Shown one piece after another: positions 7,793-27,546 of a stretch of DNA of 32,958 bases. Source of the DNA: a virus (Duplodnaviria; Heunggongvirae; Uroviricota; Caudoviricetes); the IMG/VR virus record IMGVR_UViG_646862326_000003, positions 1 to 32,958 of that record, one strand, 5' to 3'. The notes below the pieces were generated by a model that saw only the letters and a list, made by a program, of their open reading frames with translations, made no database searches and was not told where the DNA came from. The position numbers and the translations under genes are program-made. The number at the start of each line of letters is the position of its first letter. Within the stretch, counting starts at the first letter, position 1.

Positions 7793-8524
7793 ATGGATAC
7801 TATAATCGCTTTTCTATCACTCGCTTTTTTCGTTGCTTTCTTCATCGGGTTAATCAAGCCATCACTGGTGCGAATGCCAAACCGCAAACGTGCAAGTGCG
7901 GTTTATCTCGGAGGAGGTTTTGTATTGAGCATAATTGGTTCAATACTCTATCCAACAGAAAAAAGCCAGCCAGTTGCTAAAACTGAAACATCAACCGTTG
8001 CAGAACACAAAGTCCAAAAAACATTCGAATATGGTGAAAAAACACTCAAGGAATATCGGAACGAGTCAAAGAAAACACGACACGATATTGTGAATAGTTA
8101 CATTGATTTTAAGGAAGTTCCAGCCACCGCGTCAGATGCGTTTTATGCCTGCATGAGTGAGTATACATTTACCAAAGATGATGAGTTGAAACTCGGTGAT
8201 GTTCTTGGGTGGTGCTTTAATGATTATGAAAATGACCCGAATTCACTAAACAATAAAATCAATCTTGATACATTTCAGAGTAATTTTAGTGGTTGGGATG
8301 GTTCTTATCGTCCATTGGAAAAACTAATTAAAGATAATATGAACGATGATTCATCTTATAAACATGTGTCAACGGTATATCATCTGGTTTTGAATAAAGA
8401 CCCGCATGCCATTGTGAAAACCACGTTTCGCGGAACTAATGCTTATGGAGGAGTGGTGAAACAGACGATTGCTGCGCGTGTTGATATAAAAACTGGTAAG
8501 GTGATATCAATCATAGATAATTGA
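7793..8524 (+). CDS. AT-rich cargo gene 1: membrane protein with two N-terminal transmembrane helices and a C-terminal soluble domain (243 aa)
   Basis: Start placed at the ATG preceded by AAGGA (the track start 7751 has no Shine-Dalgarno). Hydrophobic helices IIAFLSLAFFVAFFIGLI and AVYLGGGFVLSIIGSILY. Visibly AT-rich relative to the structural genes. Sits in the P2 old/tin accessory position. Followed by a strong intrinsic terminator. Confidence 0.65.
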   Translation: MDTIIAFLSLAFFVAFFIGLIKPSLVRMPNRKRASAVYLGGGFVLSIIGSILYPTEKSQPVAKTETSTVAEHKVQKTFEYGEKTLKEYRNESKKTRHDIVNSYIDFKEVPATASDAFYACMSEYTFTKDDELKLGDVLGWCFNDYENDPNSLNNKINLDTFQSNFSGWDGSYRPLEKLIKDNMNDDSSYKHVSTVYHLVLNKDPHAIVKTTFRGTNAYGGVVKQTIAARVDIKTGKVISIIDN

Positions 8525-8533
8525 TATCTTACA

Positions 8534-8575
8534 ATGCCGACGCTGAATATTTAATTGGGTGTCGGCATTTTTTTT
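8534..8575 (+). terminator. Rho-independent terminator after cargo gene 1
   Basis: Perfect 8-bp stem ATGCCGAC (8534-8541) / GTCGGCAT (8561-8568) followed by TTTTTTT (8569-8575). Confidence 0.6.
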
Positions 8576-8635
8576 GACTATTAGAGCGGCAGAGCCGAGA
8601 TTTGTTACGTATGAGATTAGCACTGCGAGAATGTT

Positions 8636-9418
8636 ATGAAAGTTATAAACCAACTTAAGAAGTTTGATAAGAAAAGAACGCCAGATGATGGCCGTATTAG
8701 TTTGTTATATGAAAACGCGATTAAGTATGATATGTACTCTGTATATATTAAAGATAAAAATGATACAGAATACCTCTTTGACTGTTTGGTTGATGGGAAG
8801 ATAAAGGCTTTTAAATGGGATGATGAGGAACGTAGATTTCATATAAGTTCATACTTGGATATTTCTGAGCTTACGCCTGATTCTTTTTTTGGTATTTATT
8901 ACTACCGTGCGCATGAGTTGCGATTTAACTCTTTAAATGATTTAACCTTTTTAAGGGAGTTGTTTTTTAGAGTGAAGTCTAATTATGAAAATATAAAGTT
9001 TAGTCGTGAAAAATATATTTATCGACAGCAAAAAAAAGAAATAACTGATGTGATGCTTGTTCTCTCAACGATTATAAGAATGTATCGTGAACGGGATGCT
9101 GAAACTGTGTTTAGTGAGTTTTCAATAATGACCGAAGTCGCTGGTAGTTTATGGGTATACCATGACGATAAAAACAGGATGCGTAAAGAGCTTCGTTTAT
9201 GCCTGAATTCTCTTGTTCAGAATGGAGATCTTGTTGAAACAAGTAGTGGATTTAGGCTAACAGGAAAGGCACTGAACACAATATCTACATTCAATAAAGA
9301 TGAGTTGCGGTACAGAGAGAATTTGAGCACTCAGAAGAAAATGTTTTGGGCTACTTTTTTCGCAGCAGTCGGCGGCGTAGGAAGTATGATTGCAGCTATA
9401 ATAGGGCTTCTAAAATGA
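8636..9418 (+). CDS. AT-rich cargo gene 2: soluble domain with C-terminal transmembrane tail anchor (260 aa)
   Basis: C-terminal FWATFFAAVGGVGSMIAAIIGLL is a single predicted transmembrane helix. A 60-nt sample at 8641-8700 is 35% GC versus 58% for a sample at 13321-13380 in the capsid region. No recognisable catalytic motif. Confidence 0.65.
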   Translation: MKVINQLKKFDKKRTPDDGRISLLYENAIKYDMYSVYIKDKNDTEYLFDCLVDGKIKAFKWDDEERRFHISSYLDISELTPDSFFGIYYYRAHELRFNSLNDLTFLRELFFRVKSNYENIKFSREKYIYRQQKKEITDVMLVLSTIIRMYRERDAETVFSEFSIMTEVAGSLWVYHDDKNRMRKELRLCLNSLVQNGDLVETSSGFRLTGKALNTISTFNKDELRYRENLSTQKKMFWATFFAAVGGVGSMIAAIIGLLK

Positions 9419-9578: not shown

Positions 9579-9597
9579 GGCGAGGCGGGGAAAGCAC
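9579..9597. other. cos: cos site: 19-nt cohesive-end sequence GGCGAGGCGGGGAAAGCAC
   Basis: Exact match to the P2 cohesive-end 19-mer as recalled, in the expected place between the accessory genes and Q, preceded by the palindrome CCGCCCCATGAAGCGGGCGG and followed by GC-rich terminase-binding sequence. Confidence 0.8.
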
Positions 9598-9766: not shown

Positions 9767-10801
9767 TCAGCCGTTGTCAGTGTCCAGTGAGTAGTTTTTA
9801 AAGCGGATGACCTCCTGACCGAGCCAGCCGTTTATCTCGCGGATCCTGTCCTGTAGCGGGATAAGCTCATTGCGGACAAAGACCTTTGCCACTTTCTCAA
9901 TATCACCCAGCGACCCGACGTTCTCCGGCTTGCCGCCCATCAACTGAAAGGGGATGCGGTGCGCGTCCAGCAGGTCAGCGGCGCTGGCTTTTTTGATATT
10001 AAAAAAATCGTCCTTCGTCGCCACTTCACTGAGCGGGATAATTTTAATGCCGTCGGCTTTCCCCTGCGGGGCATAGAGAAACAGGTTTTTAAAGTTGTTG
10101 CGGCCTTTCGACTTCACCATGTTTTCGCGAAGCATTTCGATATCGTTGCGGTCCTGCACGGCATCGGTGACGTACATGATGTATCCGGCATGTGCGCCGT
10201 TTTCGTAATACTTGCGGCGGAACAGCGTGGCTGACTCATTCAGCCAGGCAGAGTTAAGGGCGCTGAGATATTCCGGCAGGCCGTACAGCTCCTGATTAAT
10301 ATCGGGCTCCAGCAGGTGAAACACGGAACCGGGCGCGAAGGCTGTCGGCTCGTTGAAGGACGGCACCCACCAGTAAACATCCTCCTCCACGCCACGGCGG
10401 GTATATTTTGCCGGTGAGGTTTCCAGTCTGATGACCTTACCGGTGGTGCTGTAACGCTTTTCCAGAAACGCATTACCGAAAACCAGAAAATCCAGCACAA
10501 AGCGGCTGAAATCCTGCTGGGAAAGCCACGGGTGCGGGATAAACGTTGAAGCCAGAATATTACGTTTGACGTAAATCGGTGAGCTGTGATGCACGGCAGC
10601 ACGCAGACTTTTTGCCAGACCGGTAAAGCTGACCGGTGGCTCATACCATCTGCCGTTACTGATGCATTCGACGTAATCCAGAATGTCACGGCGGTCGAGT
10701 ACCGGCACCGGTTCGCCAAAGGTGAATGCCTCCATTTTCGGGGCGCTGGCGGTCATTTTTTTTGCCGCAGGTTGCAGTGTTTTCCCTTTTTTCTTGCTCA
10801 T
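9767..10801 (-). CDS. Q: Portal protein gpQ (344 aa)
   Basis: Size and position match P2 Q; ATGA overlap with the P stop on the minus strand; transcribed divergently from the O operon. Confidence 0.9.
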   Translation of the reverse strand: MSKKKGKTLQPAAKKMTASAPKMEAFTFGEPVPVLDRRDILDYVECISNGRWYEPPVSFTGLAKSLRAAVHHSSPIYVKRNILASTFIPHPWLSQQDFSRFVLDFLVFGNAFLEKRYSTTGKVIRLETSPAKYTRRGVEEDVYWWVPSFNEPTAFAPGSVFHLLEPDINQELYGLPEYLSALNSAWLNESATLFRRKYYENGAHAGYIMYVTDAVQDRNDIEMLRENMVKSKGRNNFKNLFLYAPQGKADGIKIIPLSEVATKDDFFNIKKASAADLLDAHRIPFQLMGGKPENVGSLGDIEKVAKVFVRNELIPLQDRIREINGWLGQEVIRFKNYSLDTDNG

Positions 10802-12573
10802 CAGTAAAACTCCAGAATGGTGGATGTCAGCGGGGTGCTGATACCGGCGGTGAGTGGCTCATTTAACAGGGCGTGCATGGTCGCCCAGGCGAGGTCGGCG
10901 TGGCTGGCTTCCTCGCTGCGGCTGGCCTCATAAGTGGCGCTGCGTCCGCTGCTGGTCATGGTCTTGCGGATAGCCATAAACGAGCTGGTGATGTCGGTGG
11001 CGCTGACGTCATATTCCAGACAGCCACGGCGGATGACGTCTTTTGCCTTGAGCACCATTGCGGTTTTCATTTCCGGCGTGTAGCGGATATCGCGCGCGGC
11101 GGGATAGAACGAGCGCACGAGCTGGAACACGCCGACACCGAGGCCGGTGGCATCAATACCGATGTATTCGACGTTGTATTTTTCGGTGAGTTTGCGGATG
11201 GATTCCGCCTGGGTGGCAAAGTCCATGCCTTTCCACTGGTGACGCTCAAGTATTCTGAATTTGCCACCGGCCACCACCGGCGGTGCCAGTACCACGCATC
11301 CGGCGCTGTCGCCACGGTGTGACGGGTCGTAACCAATCCAGACCGGGCGGGAGCCGAACGGATTGGCGGCAAACGGCGCATAGTCTTCCCATTCTTCCAG
11401 CGTGTCGACCATGCAGCGTTGCAGCTCCTCGAACGGGAACACCGACGCCTTGTCGTCAACAAATTCACACATGAACAGGTTTTTAAAATCGTCGGCGCTG
11501 TTTTCGCGTTTGAGCTGTTCAATGTCGAACAGCGTGCAGCCACCTTTCAGGGCGTCCTCAATGGTGACAATCTGCCGCCACTGGCCGTCCGCACAGAGAA
11601 GCCCACCGGCAAGGGCGTTATGACTGACGTCGATTTCCACGCGTTCGGCGGCGCTGGCGCGTCCCCGGTTGAACAGTTCACCTGACCAGAACGGGTAGGC
11701 GTCGTGCGCCAGCGTGGACGGGGTGGAGAAATAGGTCGAGCGCAGGTGACTCTGTGAGGCCATACCTGATGCCACCTTACGCAGTACCTGAAAATTCGGG
11801 ATCCAGAAAATCTCGTCGACGTACAGGTCGCCGTTATGGCTCTGTGCGGTGTTGGAGTTGGTGCCGAGAAAAATCAGTTTTGCGCCGTTATTGCCCAGGA
11901 CAATCGGGTCACCGGTCAGGTCAACGTCAACCAGCCGGGCAAAGGCGATGATGTATTCGCGGAACACATACGCCTGCGTTTTACTGGCCGACAGAAAAAT
12001 CTGGTTATGGCCGGTTTTCAGGGCGCGCAGCAGCGCCTCGCGGGAAAAATAAAACGTCGCACCAATCTGGCGGGATTTCAGGATATCGCGGATGCGGTGC
12101 TCAAGCCCGGCGCGATACCAGTGCAACTGATAGTCGAAAGACTGCTCAAAGAAAATCTGCTCCAGCTTTTCGATGGCCTCGTCACTGAAAAAATTTTTTT
12201 TCGGTTTGCGCCGCCCGCCTTTGTTGCGGTTAGCGACGTTCGGATTAAGGTCTGCCTCGTTGCCGGTCTGGCTGTAACGATTTACCCGTGCCAGTCGTTC
12301 AATCTGGCGTCCCAGCAGGTCAATTTCCTTGAAGTCACCGCCGGTTTTCTGCGGTTTGATAATGAGCTGGGTCAGCCGCGCTTCCAGGCTCATTTCGACA
12401 CGGCTGATGGGGGCAACGTTGTCCCAGCCGTCGCGCTGTTTCCAGCTCTGCACTGTCGGGCGTTTCATCTGCAACATGGCGGCAATCTGCGGCACGGAAA
12501 ATCCCTGCCAGTACAGCAGCGCCGCCTGACGACGCGGGTCGTGTAAAAGAGTGGTGTCTGTGGTGATGGTCAT
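10801..12573 (-). CDS. P: Terminase large (ATPase) subunit gpP (590 aa)
   Basis: Starts MTITTDTTLLHDPRRQ at the first ATG (12571-12573); size matches P2 P; upstream of Q in the same operon. Confidence 0.9.
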   Translation of the reverse strand: MTITTDTTLLHDPRRQAALLYWQGFSVPQIAAMLQMKRPTVQSWKQRDGWDNVAPISRVEMSLEARLTQLIIKPQKTGGDFKEIDLLGRQIERLARVNRYSQTGNEADLNPNVANRNKGGRRKPKKNFFSDEAIEKLEQIFFEQSFDYQLHWYRAGLEHRIRDILKSRQIGATFYFSREALLRALKTGHNQIFLSASKTQAYVFREYIIAFARLVDVDLTGDPIVLGNNGAKLIFLGTNSNTAQSHNGDLYVDEIFWIPNFQVLRKVASGMASQSHLRSTYFSTPSTLAHDAYPFWSGELFNRGRASAAERVEIDVSHNALAGGLLCADGQWRQIVTIEDALKGGCTLFDIEQLKRENSADDFKNLFMCEFVDDKASVFPFEELQRCMVDTLEEWEDYAPFAANPFGSRPVWIGYDPSHRGDSAGCVVLAPPVVAGGKFRILERHQWKGMDFATQAESIRKLTEKYNVEYIGIDATGLGVGVFQLVRSFYPAARDIRYTPEMKTAMVLKAKDVIRRGCLEYDVSATDITSSFMAIRKTMTSSGRSATYEASRSEEASHADLAWATMHALLNEPLTAGISTPLTSTILEFY

Positions 12574-12603
12574 GAATACCTCGCCGTGATGAATACACGG
12601 CAA

Positions 12604-24184: not shown

Positions 24185-24712
24185 ATGCAGCATTTAAAAA
24201 ATATTACTGCGGGTAATCCAAAAACTGTTGCCCAATATCAACTGACAAAAAATTTTGATGTTATCTGGTTATGGTCCGAAGAGGGAAAAAACTGGTATGA
24301 GGAAGTAAGTAATTTTCAGGAAGACACGATAAAGATTGTTTACGACGAGAATAATATAATTGTCGGCATCACCAGAGATGCTTCAACGCTTAACCCTGAA
24401 GGTTTTAGCGTTGTCGAGGTTCCTGATATTACCGCCAACCGACGTGCTGATGACTCAGGTAAATGGATGTTTAAGGATGGTGCTGTGATTAAGCGGATTT
24501 ATACGGCAGACGAACAGCTGCAACTGGCGGAATTACAGAAGTCAGCTTTGCTTTCCGAAGCTGAAACTATCATTCAGCCACTGGAACGCTCTGTCAGACT
24601 GAATATGGCAACAGATGAGGAGCGTAGCCGACTGGAAGCATGGGAACGCTACAGTGTTCTGGTCAGCCGTGTGGATCCTGCAAATCCTGAATGGCCGGAA
24701 ATGCCGCAATAA
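24185..24712 (+). CDS. G: Tail fibre assembly chaperone gpG (175 aa)
   Basis: [40 protein letters not shown] matches P2 G as recalled; immediately follows H. Confidence 0.88.
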
Positions 24713-25133: not shown

Positions 25134-25976
25134 ATGAAAAAAGAATTGTTTGGACGTTGCCCGTTTGATCTTGACGAAGATGTAAAAAAAATAGCCGCGA
25201 TAAATAAATATATCCATGCAAAATTTGAGGAGCATAAAAATAAAATAGACAACCTAAAGGGTGTGGAACAAAAATTGATGGTCTTACAGTACTTTAATGT
25301 ACTGAATGAACTTAGTAATCAGGCTATCTCTTCTTTGAATATAGGAGCCTTTTCAGCATCGGAAGTATTAGCTAGGGTTATAATAGAACAGGCTGCCAAT
25401 CAATTTTATATAGCAATAGATGATGGCGAAAATGCACAAGCATTACTCAAGGCTAGTAAGAAATTAGTTCATAGTAATGGAAAACGGTGGCTGGAGTGTT
25501 TAAAATCCAAAGGAATGACTAATCCAGCAGCAAATGAAAGGATTCGCATGGGAAAAGAACTAACTGATCTATTTAATAGATTGTGGCCAAATACACCTGA
25601 ATATCCAGGAACCAGAAAACTTTTTGAATTAATTGGCTGGGAAACACACTATCATGCCCATTACGTTCCCCTTTGTGATTCAATACATACATTCTCTGAT
25701 GATATGGTAAATATAGTATCTCTATATAATGCAATCCAAAGTGATGAAACTACTGCTATCGAATTCATTCTTGCAGTTAAACAAGAAAATAAACGGCTGG
25801 CAATTTATAATTTTGTAATTGCTACGGCCCTTCGGTGTGAGGCCTTAGTAAATGTATTTAACTCTTTAGGTTATCAGGATATTATAACAGAAATGACACC
25901 AACAATAGATACAGTCAACCAGACTATAATTCGATATGATGATTTTGATCATTCCAGAATTGATGATTGTCAATAA
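25134..25976 (+). CDS. AT-rich cargo gene at the Z/fun position between G and FI: soluble protein of unknown function (280 aa)
   Basis: Coordinates as given in the ORF track; by my base count the ATG falls about 10 nt upstream, so the exact start needs checking against the sequence. A 60-nt sample at 25201-25260 is 25% GC. No transmembrane segment or recognisable catalytic motif. Sits between G and FI where P2 carries Z/fun. Confidence 0.7.
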   Translation: MKKELFGRCPFDLDEDVKKIAAINKYIHAKFEEHKNKIDNLKGVEQKLMVLQYFNVLNELSNQAISSLNIGAFSASEVLARVIIEQAANQFYIAIDDGENAQALLKASKKLVHSNGKRWLECLKSKGMTNPAANERIRMGKELTDLFNRLWPNTPEYPGTRKLFELIGWETHYHAHYVPLCDSIHTFSDDMVNIVSLYNAIQSDETTAIEFILAVKQENKRLAIYNFVIATALRCEALVNVFNSLGYQDIITEMTPTIDTVNQTIIRYDDFDHSRIDDCQ

Positions 25977-26355: not shown

Positions 26356-27546
26356 ATGAGCGACTATCATCATGGCGTGCAGGTGCTGGAGATTAACGAC
26401 GGCACCCGCGTCATTTCCACCGTATCCACCGCCATTGTCGGCATGGTCTGCACGGCCAGCGATGCGGATGCGGAAATCTTCCCCCTCAATAAACCGGTGC
26501 TGATCACCAATGTGCAGAGCGCAATTGCAAAGGCCGGTAAAAAAGGCACGCTGGCGGCATCGTTGCAGGCCATCGCTGACCAGTCAAAACCGGTCACCGT
26601 TGTCGTGCGCGTGGAAGACGGAACCGGCGACGACGAAGAAACGAAACTCGCGCAGACCGTTTCCAATATTATCGGCACCACTGACGAAAACGGTCAGTAC
26701 ACCGGACTGAAAGCCCTGCTGGCGGCGGAGTCGGTAACCGGTGTTAAACCGCGCATTCTCGGTGTGCCGGGACTGGACACCAAAGAGGTGGCTGTTGCAC
26801 TGGCATCAGTCTGTCAGAAGCTGCGCGCTTTCGGGTATATCAGCGCATGGGGCTGTAAAACCATTTCCGAGGTGAAAGCCTACCGTCAGAATTTCAGCCA
26901 GCGTGAGCTGATGGTCATCTGGCCGGATTTCCTCGCATGGGATACGGTCACCAGTACCACCGCCACCGCGTATGCTACCGCCCGTGCACTGGGCTTGCGC
27001 GCTAAAATCGACCAGGAGCAGGGCTGGCATAAAACACTGTCCAACGTCGGGGTGAACGGTGTTACCGGCATCAGCGCATCTGTATTCTGGGATTTGCAGG
27101 AGTCCGGCACTGATGCTGACCTGCTTAACGAGTCAGGCGTCACAACGCTGATTCGCCGTGATGGTTTCCGCTTCTGGGGTAACCGTACCTGCTCTGATGA
27201 CCCGCTGTTCCTCTTTGAAAACTACACCCGCACCGCGCAGGTGCTGGCCGACACGATGGCTGAGGCGCACATGTGGGCGGTGGACAAGCCCATCACCGCA
27301 ACGCTGATTCGCGACATCGTTGACGGCATCAATGCCAAATTCCGTGAGCTGAAAACAAACGGCTATATCGTGGATGCGACCTGCTGGTTCAGCGAAGAAT
27401 CCAACGATGCGGAAACCCTCAAGGCCGGAAAACTGTATATCGACTACGACTATACACCGGTGCCTCCTCTCGAAAACCTGACCCTGCGCCAGCGTATTAC
27501 CGATAAATACCTGGCAAATCTGGTCACCTCGGTTAACAGCAATTAA
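26356..27546 (+). CDS. FI: Contractile tail sheath protein gpFI (396 aa)
   Basis: MSDYHHGVQVLEINDGTRVISTVSTAIVGMVCTASDADAE matches P2 FI as recalled; size 396 aa. Confidence 0.92.
   Translation: MSDYHHGVQVLEINDGTRVISTVSTAIVGMVCTASDADAEIFPLNKPVLITNVQSAIAKAGKKGTLAASLQAIADQSKPVTVVVRVEDGTGDDEETKLAQTVSNIIGTTDENGQYTGLKALLAAESVTGVKPRILGVPGLDTKEVAVALASVCQKLRAFGYISAWGCKTISEVKAYRQNFSQRELMVIWPDFLAWDTVTSTTATAYATARALGLRAKIDQEQGWHKTLSNVGVNGVTGISASVFWDLQESGTDADLLNESGVTTLIRRDGFRFWGNRTCSDDPLFLFENYTRTAQVLADTMAEAHMWAVDKPITATLIRDIVDGINAKFRELKTNGYIVDATCWFSEESNDAETLKAGKLYIDYDYTPVPPLENLTLRQRITDKYLANLVTSVNSN

Follow-up and report, generated by a model that had tools for sequence, protein, structure and literature searches.

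The P2 cos-proximal hotspot and its cargo

In phages related to P2, the region between the replication gene A (gpA) and the portal gene Q, close to the cohesive end site (cos), is a hotspot in which 1,650 arrangements have been described across 18,150 E. coli loci and which, in P2 itself, holds old and tin (Rousset et al. 2022, PMC9122126). Many validated defence systems are located in it, and three of eight further cloned systems gave protection (PMC9122126); for the matching P4 hotspot, six of eight randomly picked loci of unknown function were protective (bioRxiv 10.64898/2026.02.27.708500). Here we describe a gene from this hotspot in a P2-like (Peduovirus) prophage, IMG/VR record IMGVR_UViG_646862326_000003, of which positions 1 to 32,958 were analysed (32,958 nucleotides; the window). 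The gene, called gene 2 in the following (8636–9418 on the plus strand, stop codon included), encodes a protein of 260 amino acids, predicted to consist of a small beta-barrel, a winged helix, a conserved stalk and a carboxy-terminal transmembrane (TM) helix. The hotspot literature just cited supplies a prior for a role of this protein in defence.

The protein is already catalogued, with no recorded function. It matches phrog_7611 over residues 1–260 of 260 (E 1.9e-162) and corresponds to system #68 in Table S5B of Rousset et al. (2022), a near-identical single-gene entry with 62 occurrences in 18,150 loci, located between gpA and gpQ, without a Pfam domain and labelled "1 TM" (PMC9122126). 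The representative given there starts with MKVINQLKKF and matches the gene 2 motifs tested; there is no difference in kind between the two. What the present analysis adds is a predicted domain architecture, a view of how large and widespread the family is, the conservation seen in the stalk and the TM helix, and the evidence for an autonomous module.

The best-described occupants of the same cos-adjacent site are Tin and Old of P2, both products of non-essential lysogenic-conversion genes that exclude other phages (PMC9122126). Gene 2 points in the same direction as gene A, while old and tin are encoded on the other strand, their promoter lying near cos. Old, an ABC-ATPase/TOPRIM nuclease, is unlike the gene 2 protein, and homology to Tin (253 amino acids) was rejected, the BLASTP E value being 2.4 and the hhalign probability 0.1%. 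In the window, gene 2 is the last gene ahead of cos and the right cohesive end; a P2-type cos core, GGCGAGGCGGGGAAAGCAC, is present at 9579–9597 on the plus strand, at a position matching cosR of the P2 record. Gene 2 or its homologue lies between gpA and Q in 48 of the 48 related loci compared, which were taken from complete genomes, assemblies and IMG/VR. The insert between these two genes has a guanine-plus-cytosine (GC) content of 0.35, against about 0.53 in the flanking phage genes, which indicates a foreign origin. Gene 2 is rare; only five of 5,426 complete E. coli genomes carry it, one of them (strain MS7163, NZ_CP026853.1) as a 100% identical copy.

Predicted architecture of the protein and its family

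The open reading frame (ORF) of gene 2 starts with ATG, and its product ends in ...KMFWATFFAAVGGVGSMIAAIIGLLK. The full-length match to phrog_7611, 31 clusters of homologues at 45–97% identity with conserved length, and a ratio of non-synonymous to synonymous substitution rates (dN/dS) of 0.2–0.75 among near-identical copies, calculated from few substitutions, together mark it as a genuine gene. In a hydropathy analysis, 19-residue Kyte-Doolittle windows exceed 1.2 only at starts 235–242, with a peak of 2.2; there is one hydrophobic helix only, at the extreme carboxy-terminus (residues 237–259, approximately). Lysines 234 and 235 precede this helix and only Lys260 follows it, a charge pattern that fits a tail anchor with the amino-terminus inside. 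With its single carboxy-terminal TM helix and its bulk predicted to be cytoplasmic, the protein can be classed as a putative tail-anchored inner-membrane protein.

An AlphaFold2 model, calculated from an alignment of 26 sequences, has a mean predicted local distance difference test (pLDDT) score of 80.8. It begins with an amino-terminal helix, which is followed by six beta-strands (residues 32–97), predicted to form a small barrel (codons 31–98, 8726–8929) that resembles SH3, Sm and KOW barrels at the level of fold class only. A long basic helix (residues 105–131, 8948–9028) connects the barrel to residues 139–209 (9050–9262), which are modelled as three helices, H1 to H3, and a two-stranded beta-wing. 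This part is a clear and confidently predicted winged helix-turn-helix domain and falls within that fold superfamily; its recognition helix H3 has a net charge of +4. Residues 210–259 form one continuous helix in the model, of which the first part is a charged juxtamembrane stalk (codons 210–236, 9263–9343) and the remainder the TM segment (codons 237–259, 9344–9412). About 235 residues, comprising the barrel, the basic helix and the winged helix, are thus predicted to face the cytoplasm, held at the inner membrane by the stalk and the TM helix. The top matches of the winged helix in structure searches include the protein-binding winged helices of kleisins; a specific kinship with these was rejected, generic PadR and MarR domains scoring nearly as high.

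The first-pass annotation of the window, made from the sequence alone, had described a Lys/Glu/Tyr-rich, probably helical protein of 260 residues with a single carboxy-terminal TM helix and no recognisable domain. The length is confirmed, and the anchor is borne out by hydropathy. The composition is only roughly as described, with 8.8% lysine and 5.8% tyrosine, but 10% leucine and 7.3% Asp/Arg/Ser, and the helical character does not extend to residues 32–97, with their six predicted strands. As for domains, the description holds for sequence searches: there was no significant match in Pfam, NCBIfam or PADLOC, and searches of the Protein Data Bank (PDB) with the sequence alone and with a diverse profile gave a best E value of 0.04. 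It does not hold for the predicted structure, given the winged helix.

A search with a family profile against 1.84 billion representative proteins, clustered at 50% identity, retrieved 644 clusters at E ≤0.001 and 241 at E ≤1e-10. Nearly all members are 250–300 amino acids long and match from end to end, and those names that could be retrieved are "hypothetical protein" throughout. A single strongly hydrophobic segment at or near the carboxy-terminus is present in 123 of 137 full-length representatives, and in 71 of the representatives having one it is followed by five residues or fewer. Architecture and length are kept down to about 20% identity and across very different elements.

The most conserved positions of the family include, in the winged helix, L143, W173, H176 (93%), L190, S192, G197 and residue 206 (tyrosine, in places phenylalanine). 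The stalk is the least variable segment of the family, with G210, K211, A212, T215, E223, R225, H/Y226 and Q233, the last followed by lysine or arginine. Within the TM helix, a stripe of small and polar residues is formed by T240 (87% of the family, at the start of the helix), A244, A/G247, S/Q250 and A/M251; position 250 is polar in 90% of members (glutamine in 69%, serine in 21%, among them the window protein). Stalk and TM helix are conserved beyond what a passive anchor would need, which points to helix-helix association in the membrane; given the stripe at 240–251, the TM helix may associate with itself or with another protein. The family alignments contain no invariant set of catalytic-type residues, which argues for a mechanism based on binding and the membrane rather than for an enzyme. 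The window protein and the identical MS7163 copy have leucine at position 208 (codon at 9257–9259), which belongs to the wing of the winged-helix domain; this position is a nearly invariant proline in the close family and valine, leucine or proline in the wider family.

Several known classes of protein share part of this architecture. In ToxR, CadC and TcpP, an OmpR-type winged helix at the amino-terminus precedes a TM helix, beyond which lies a periplasmic sensor domain of considerable size. The gene 2 protein resembles them in that a single TM helix tethers a predicted cytoplasmic winged helix to the inner membrane. Unlike in ToxR and CadC, the TM helix is the carboxy-terminal end of the chain, with one residue beyond it (one to five in most close relatives) and no periplasmic domain, so any sensing would have to be cytoplasmic or intramembrane; moreover, the sequence gave no match to OmpR-type domains. 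The WYL regulators CapW and BrxR share a winged helix and a small barrel with it, and nothing else: in these an amino-terminal winged helix comes first, then a WYL Sm-like barrel and finally a WCX domain, while the gene 2 protein has its barrel ahead of the winged helix, and the match scores are weak. Lactococcal AbiP is a membrane-anchored, nucleic-acid-binding abortive infection (Abi) protein, with its anchor at the amino-terminus and not, as here, at the carboxy-terminus. Zorya is described as acting from the membrane (PMC11946911), and in the RT-nitrilase+1TM, hydrolase+3TM and 2TM-1TM-TIR systems of Rousset et al. the TM segments are believed, on activation, to kill the cell or bring it to arrest (PMC9122126). 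What the gene 2 protein has in common with these systems, with AbiP and with the TM effectors of CBASS and retrons is that they are cargo of hotspots or defence islands. At best, it would work in the manner of systems in which a sensor is combined with a TM effector, or which act at the membrane; it differs from them in that no partner enzyme or signalling gene is present, the sensor and the putative effector being located in one chain of 260 residues.

Proposed function and competing explanations

Distant relatives of gene 2 are found on very different elements. One of them, about 22% identical, is located in the accessory region after a zot-like gene of a filamentous Vibrio cyclitrophicus prophage; since this relative is full-length, the same cargo family is common to tailed and filamentous phages. 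It occupies positions 5968–6747 of locus L003, downstream of zot-like gene I in the 11.9-kb Tubulavirales prophage Vibrio phage 10N.237.312.D05_PE002 (PQ189292.1). Another, from Klebsiella and about 30% identical, lies on a P2-like contig (L055, 1634–3327) in the other P2 hotspot, between tail fibre and tail sheath genes, beside a gene for a DUF6650 protein. Plasmid-borne relatives follow a restriction endonuclease gene on a Klebsiella IncFII plasmid, with Shedu and ccdAB close by; lie between genes for HEPN and DUF2971 proteins on a Yersinia plasmid, near a HigA-RelE/ParE toxin-antitoxin pair; stand between the integrase and the partition/replication block of the Burkholderia plasmid pBMUL01; and occur near a PD-(D/E)XK nuclease gene on a Shewanella plasmid. 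The remaining informative contexts are a metagenomic chromosomal island with HEPN_LA2681 and SduA_C, a Buttiauxella element in which the gene is beside ParA, HigB and ParE, and another metagenomic contig, where it is beside ccdAB and type VI secretion genes. Three further distant contexts were too short or uninformative, and three distant family members looked for in IMG/VR were not found there. No partner gene is conserved across the distant contexts examined. The pattern is that of a stand-alone accessory gene that moves between mobile elements of very different kinds and often has defence genes for neighbours. Gene 2 is thus best described as an autonomous accessory module that spreads horizontally among temperate phages and plasmids.

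From these features we infer, with somewhat less than even confidence, that gene 2 is a stand-alone, single-protein system for the exclusion of phages or other mobile elements, expressed from the prophage. The position in the hotspot, the foreign GC content of the insert, the autonomy of the gene, the defence-rich contexts of its relatives, the conserved architecture, stalk and TM helix, the predicted winged helix with its basic recognition helix and the absence of an invariant catalytic-type residue set all support such a role. During infection, the barrel and the winged helix would sense something that appears at the membrane, be it nucleic acid on its way in or a protein of the phage, and would relay the signal along the conserved stalk. 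In response, the TM helices would associate by means of their small and polar stripe, either among themselves or with a protein of the host inner membrane that is used in DNA entry, and the outcome would be permeabilisation of the membrane (abortive infection), or the blocking or capture of the entering genome. If the role is indeed one of defence, membrane perturbation and entry block or DNA capture appear roughly equally likely. A more general version, in which the whole family, on tailed and filamentous phages, plasmids and islands, is a new class of one-protein immune sensor-effectors, seems to us improbable. In that version, the winged helix and the SH3-like barrel would be kept at the cytoplasmic face of the inner membrane, at the place where invading DNA comes through, would detect this DNA or its pilot proteins, and the stalk and the striped TM helix would respond with a pore or a jammed entry channel, without enzyme or partner.

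Several results weigh against a defence role. The only match of the protein among the 5,027 models of PADLOC-DB v2, which includes candidate families derived from defence islands, is to DruD with an E value of 0.024 over 45 residues; four distant family members gave no PADLOC match. Neither gene 2 nor its upstream neighbour, gene 1, is in the table of cloned and tested systems of Rousset et al. (Table S2), and gene 2 is not in the supplements of the 2026 P2/P4-hotspot preprint, in which P4 loci only were tested (bioRxiv 10.64898/2026.02.27.708500). Literature searches by RefSeq accession, by architecture and by the Vibrio elements found no functional study of the family. The association with defence genes is anecdotal, coming from a small sample of about ten distant contexts, and the P2 hotspot also hosts cargo other than defence systems, such as partition systems and toxins (PMC9122126). 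Finally, a scan of the 61 base pairs between the upstream terminator and the start codon found no promoter above its threshold. Read directly from the sequence, a candidate weak promoter (TTGACT, 17 nucleotides, GAGATT) is located at 8574–8602 on the plus strand; it is below the scan threshold.

The first-pass annotation had considered the protein tail-anchored cargo of a defence-rich locus and, from there, a possible membrane-targeted effector, and had taken identity with a phage structural or morphogenetic protein as evidence to the contrary. The observation of the ORF, its carboxy-terminal helix and the spacer is confirmed. The interpretation is supported in part, namely for tail-anchored cargo in a defence-rich locus, the cos-adjacent gpA–Q hotspot of P2, and for independence from gene 1, and PHROGs, BFVD and the PDB yielded no structural or morphogenetic match. 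An effector or defence role is not established, the protein matching no known defence family and not being among the tested systems, and no consensus promoter having been found in the 61 base pairs ahead of its start codon.

It is unlikely, in our estimate, that the protein is instead a membrane-tethered DNA-binding protein that serves its own element, either by anchoring the genome for maintenance, partition or replication, or as a membrane-sequestered transcription factor in lysogenic conversion, possibly released by proteolysis. The winged helix with its basic recognition helix would suit such a function, the family is found on many conjugative plasmids, and plasmid-partition genes are present in about a quarter of the P2 hotspots (PMC9122126). 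Furthermore, the relative in the Buttiauxella element is immediately upstream of ParA, and that on pBMUL01 is about 2.5 kb upstream of the ParA/ParB/replication block. However, adjacency to Par genes is inconsistent, and no conserved DNA repeat or partner accompanies the gene. Its sporadic occurrence, in the five complete E. coli genomes and 62 P2 loci mentioned above, also argues against such a service, and its exchange among unrelated types of element implies that it serves no lineage-specific cis site. A simple tether, moreover, needs no conserved polar stripe in its TM helix. Should the protein nevertheless be a genome tether or regulator, the cargo of P2 hotspots would extend to element maintenance beyond the known partition systems.

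The neighbouring gene 1 (Orf97, phrog_3403, 7793–8524 on the plus strand) codes for a protein with two amino-terminal TM helices, and both genes could form one two-component membrane system, in which a periplasm-facing protein with two TM helices works with a cytoplasm-facing, tail-anchored one. All five E. coli genomes that have gene 2 carry it next to gene 1 and in the same orientation, and the two are also adjacent in divergent Enterobacter, Cronobacter and Klebsiella lineages, where gene 1, the more conserved of the two, is 75–79% and gene 2 is 55–60% identical to the window copies; the two occur together in about 27 of the 48 loci, from several lineages. Against a joint system, each gene stands alone in many loci. 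Phages 9W, P22H4 and S164 have gene 1 but no gene 2, while gene 2 is found without gene 1 in about 17 of the 48 loci (among them L010, L014, L015, L027, L030 and L038–L045), either some 70–100 base pairs after gpA (L039–L043) or with other cargo between gpA and gene 2 (L030, L038 and L045). Rousset et al. list gene 1 as a separate system (#12, "2 TM"), with 210 occurrences against 62 for gene 2 (PMC9122126), and a gene-1-like neighbour was never seen beside the distant family members examined. In the window, the 111-base-pair spacer between the stop of gene 1 (8524) and the start of gene 2 (8636) contains a hairpin resembling an intrinsic terminator (8533–8575, plus strand; RNAfold and sequence), with a stem-loop at 8533–8569 of −21.4 kcal/mol running into a T8 tract at 8568–8575. 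A scan for consensus terminators did not pick up this hairpin, presumably on account of an apical region larger than the 8-nucleotide loop that the scan allows. In 186-like loci, a conserved junction of a hairpin and a sequence motif, described below, separates the two genes. Since each gene is found alone and a terminator lies between them, the two are best seen as separate modules, and a two-component system is distinctly improbable; the first-pass annotation had already noted a spacer of about 110 base pairs with a terminator, and had suggested independent systems on this basis.

Equally, there is little probability that gene 2 has no role in the lysogen, being either a passenger that is neutral or in decay, or an accessory membrane protein of the late or lytic stage that affects lysis timing or virion release. 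The negative promoter scan, the dN/dS values, which reach 0.2–0.75 among close copies, the disrupted copies in two loci (a frameshift in L047 and a truncation in L048) and the leucine of the window protein at the otherwise nearly invariant Pro208 are all compatible with this. On the other hand, length and architecture are kept across the 644 clusters to about 20% identity, nearly all loci have an uninterrupted reading frame, and the wider family tolerates leucine at position 208; for a lytic function, it is relevant that the gene is neither in nor near the lysis cassette. That the protein acts in counter-defence or host manipulation, sequestering or inactivating a DNA-binding or immune protein of the host or a rival element at the membrane to the benefit of its carrier, is very unlikely.

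If gene 2 does exclude phages, it would be a compact system, a single gene of 0.8 kb, with an architecture present in no catalogued defence family. Several hundred sequence clusters from P2/186-like phages, inoviruses, conjugative plasmids and islands would then receive a name and a testable model, and the topic bears on how cells survey the membrane site at which foreign DNA enters. Whichever explanation is correct, the gene is well defined, as one gene with four predicted modules and few conserved residues; at present it is one among many hotspot genes.

Flanking genes, junction motif and second variable locus

The hotspot of the window is preceded by gpA (4584–6911, plus strand), which is followed at its 3' side by an Orf91-like gene (6911–7363, plus strand) with DUF3850/ASCH and DUF7415 matches, belonging to phrog_1812. 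PHROGs related to phrog_1812 are annotated as "RNA-binding protein", and similar ASCH-type genes adjoin gpA in several related loci. Beyond cos, the portal gene Q (9767–10801) and the terminase gene P (10801–12603) are on the minus strand. In the MS7163 prophage, the sole complete genome with a 100% identical gene 2, an ISEc12 element (IS21 family) is inserted between portal gene Q and terminase gene P (L001, 8361–10663); that prophage is probably defective, with the cargo retained. The ISEc12 insertion is not present in the window.

The start of gene 1 at 7793 is that annotated in RefSeq; the longest ORF begins at 7751. Between the two amino-terminal TM helices of its product there is a positively charged loop, because of which the carboxy-terminal domain of 180 amino acids would face the periplasm. 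Such a layout is typical of injection-blocking superinfection-exclusion proteins.

A GC-rich hairpin (approximately 7575–7610), followed by a conserved 31-nucleotide motif, GTTGAACAACGAG...GAGGCGTTAGTT (7612–7642), is located upstream of gene 1 in the window. The same hairpin and motif are present in 31 of 55 loci, including L004 (5924–5954), L008 (5937–5967), L010 (5911–5941) and L027 (1526–1556). In the 186-like loci they are placed between gene 1 and gene 2, and where gene 1 is missing they are directly upstream of gene 2. The combination looks like a conserved junction at the boundaries of hotspot cargo modules, perhaps acting as a promoter, as a terminator of the early operon or as a recombination anchor. 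The segment at 8568–8610, between the terminator and the start of gene 2 in the window, may be a decayed copy of this junction motif.

The DUF6650 protein encoded downstream of the Klebsiella relative on contig L055 matches the PADLOC models PDC-M68A, CBASS endonuclease-effector and SduA N-terminal, with E values of 1e-24 to 1e-12, and may be an uncatalogued nuclease defence candidate. The window itself also contains a second variable locus of P2, between the tail-fibre assembly gene G (24185–24712) and the tail sheath gene FI (26356–27546). Its cargo is an ORF of low GC content (about 0.35) at 25134–25976 on the plus strand, coding for 280 amino acids, which matches Pfam DUF5677 with an E value of 5e-10 and no PADLOC model.
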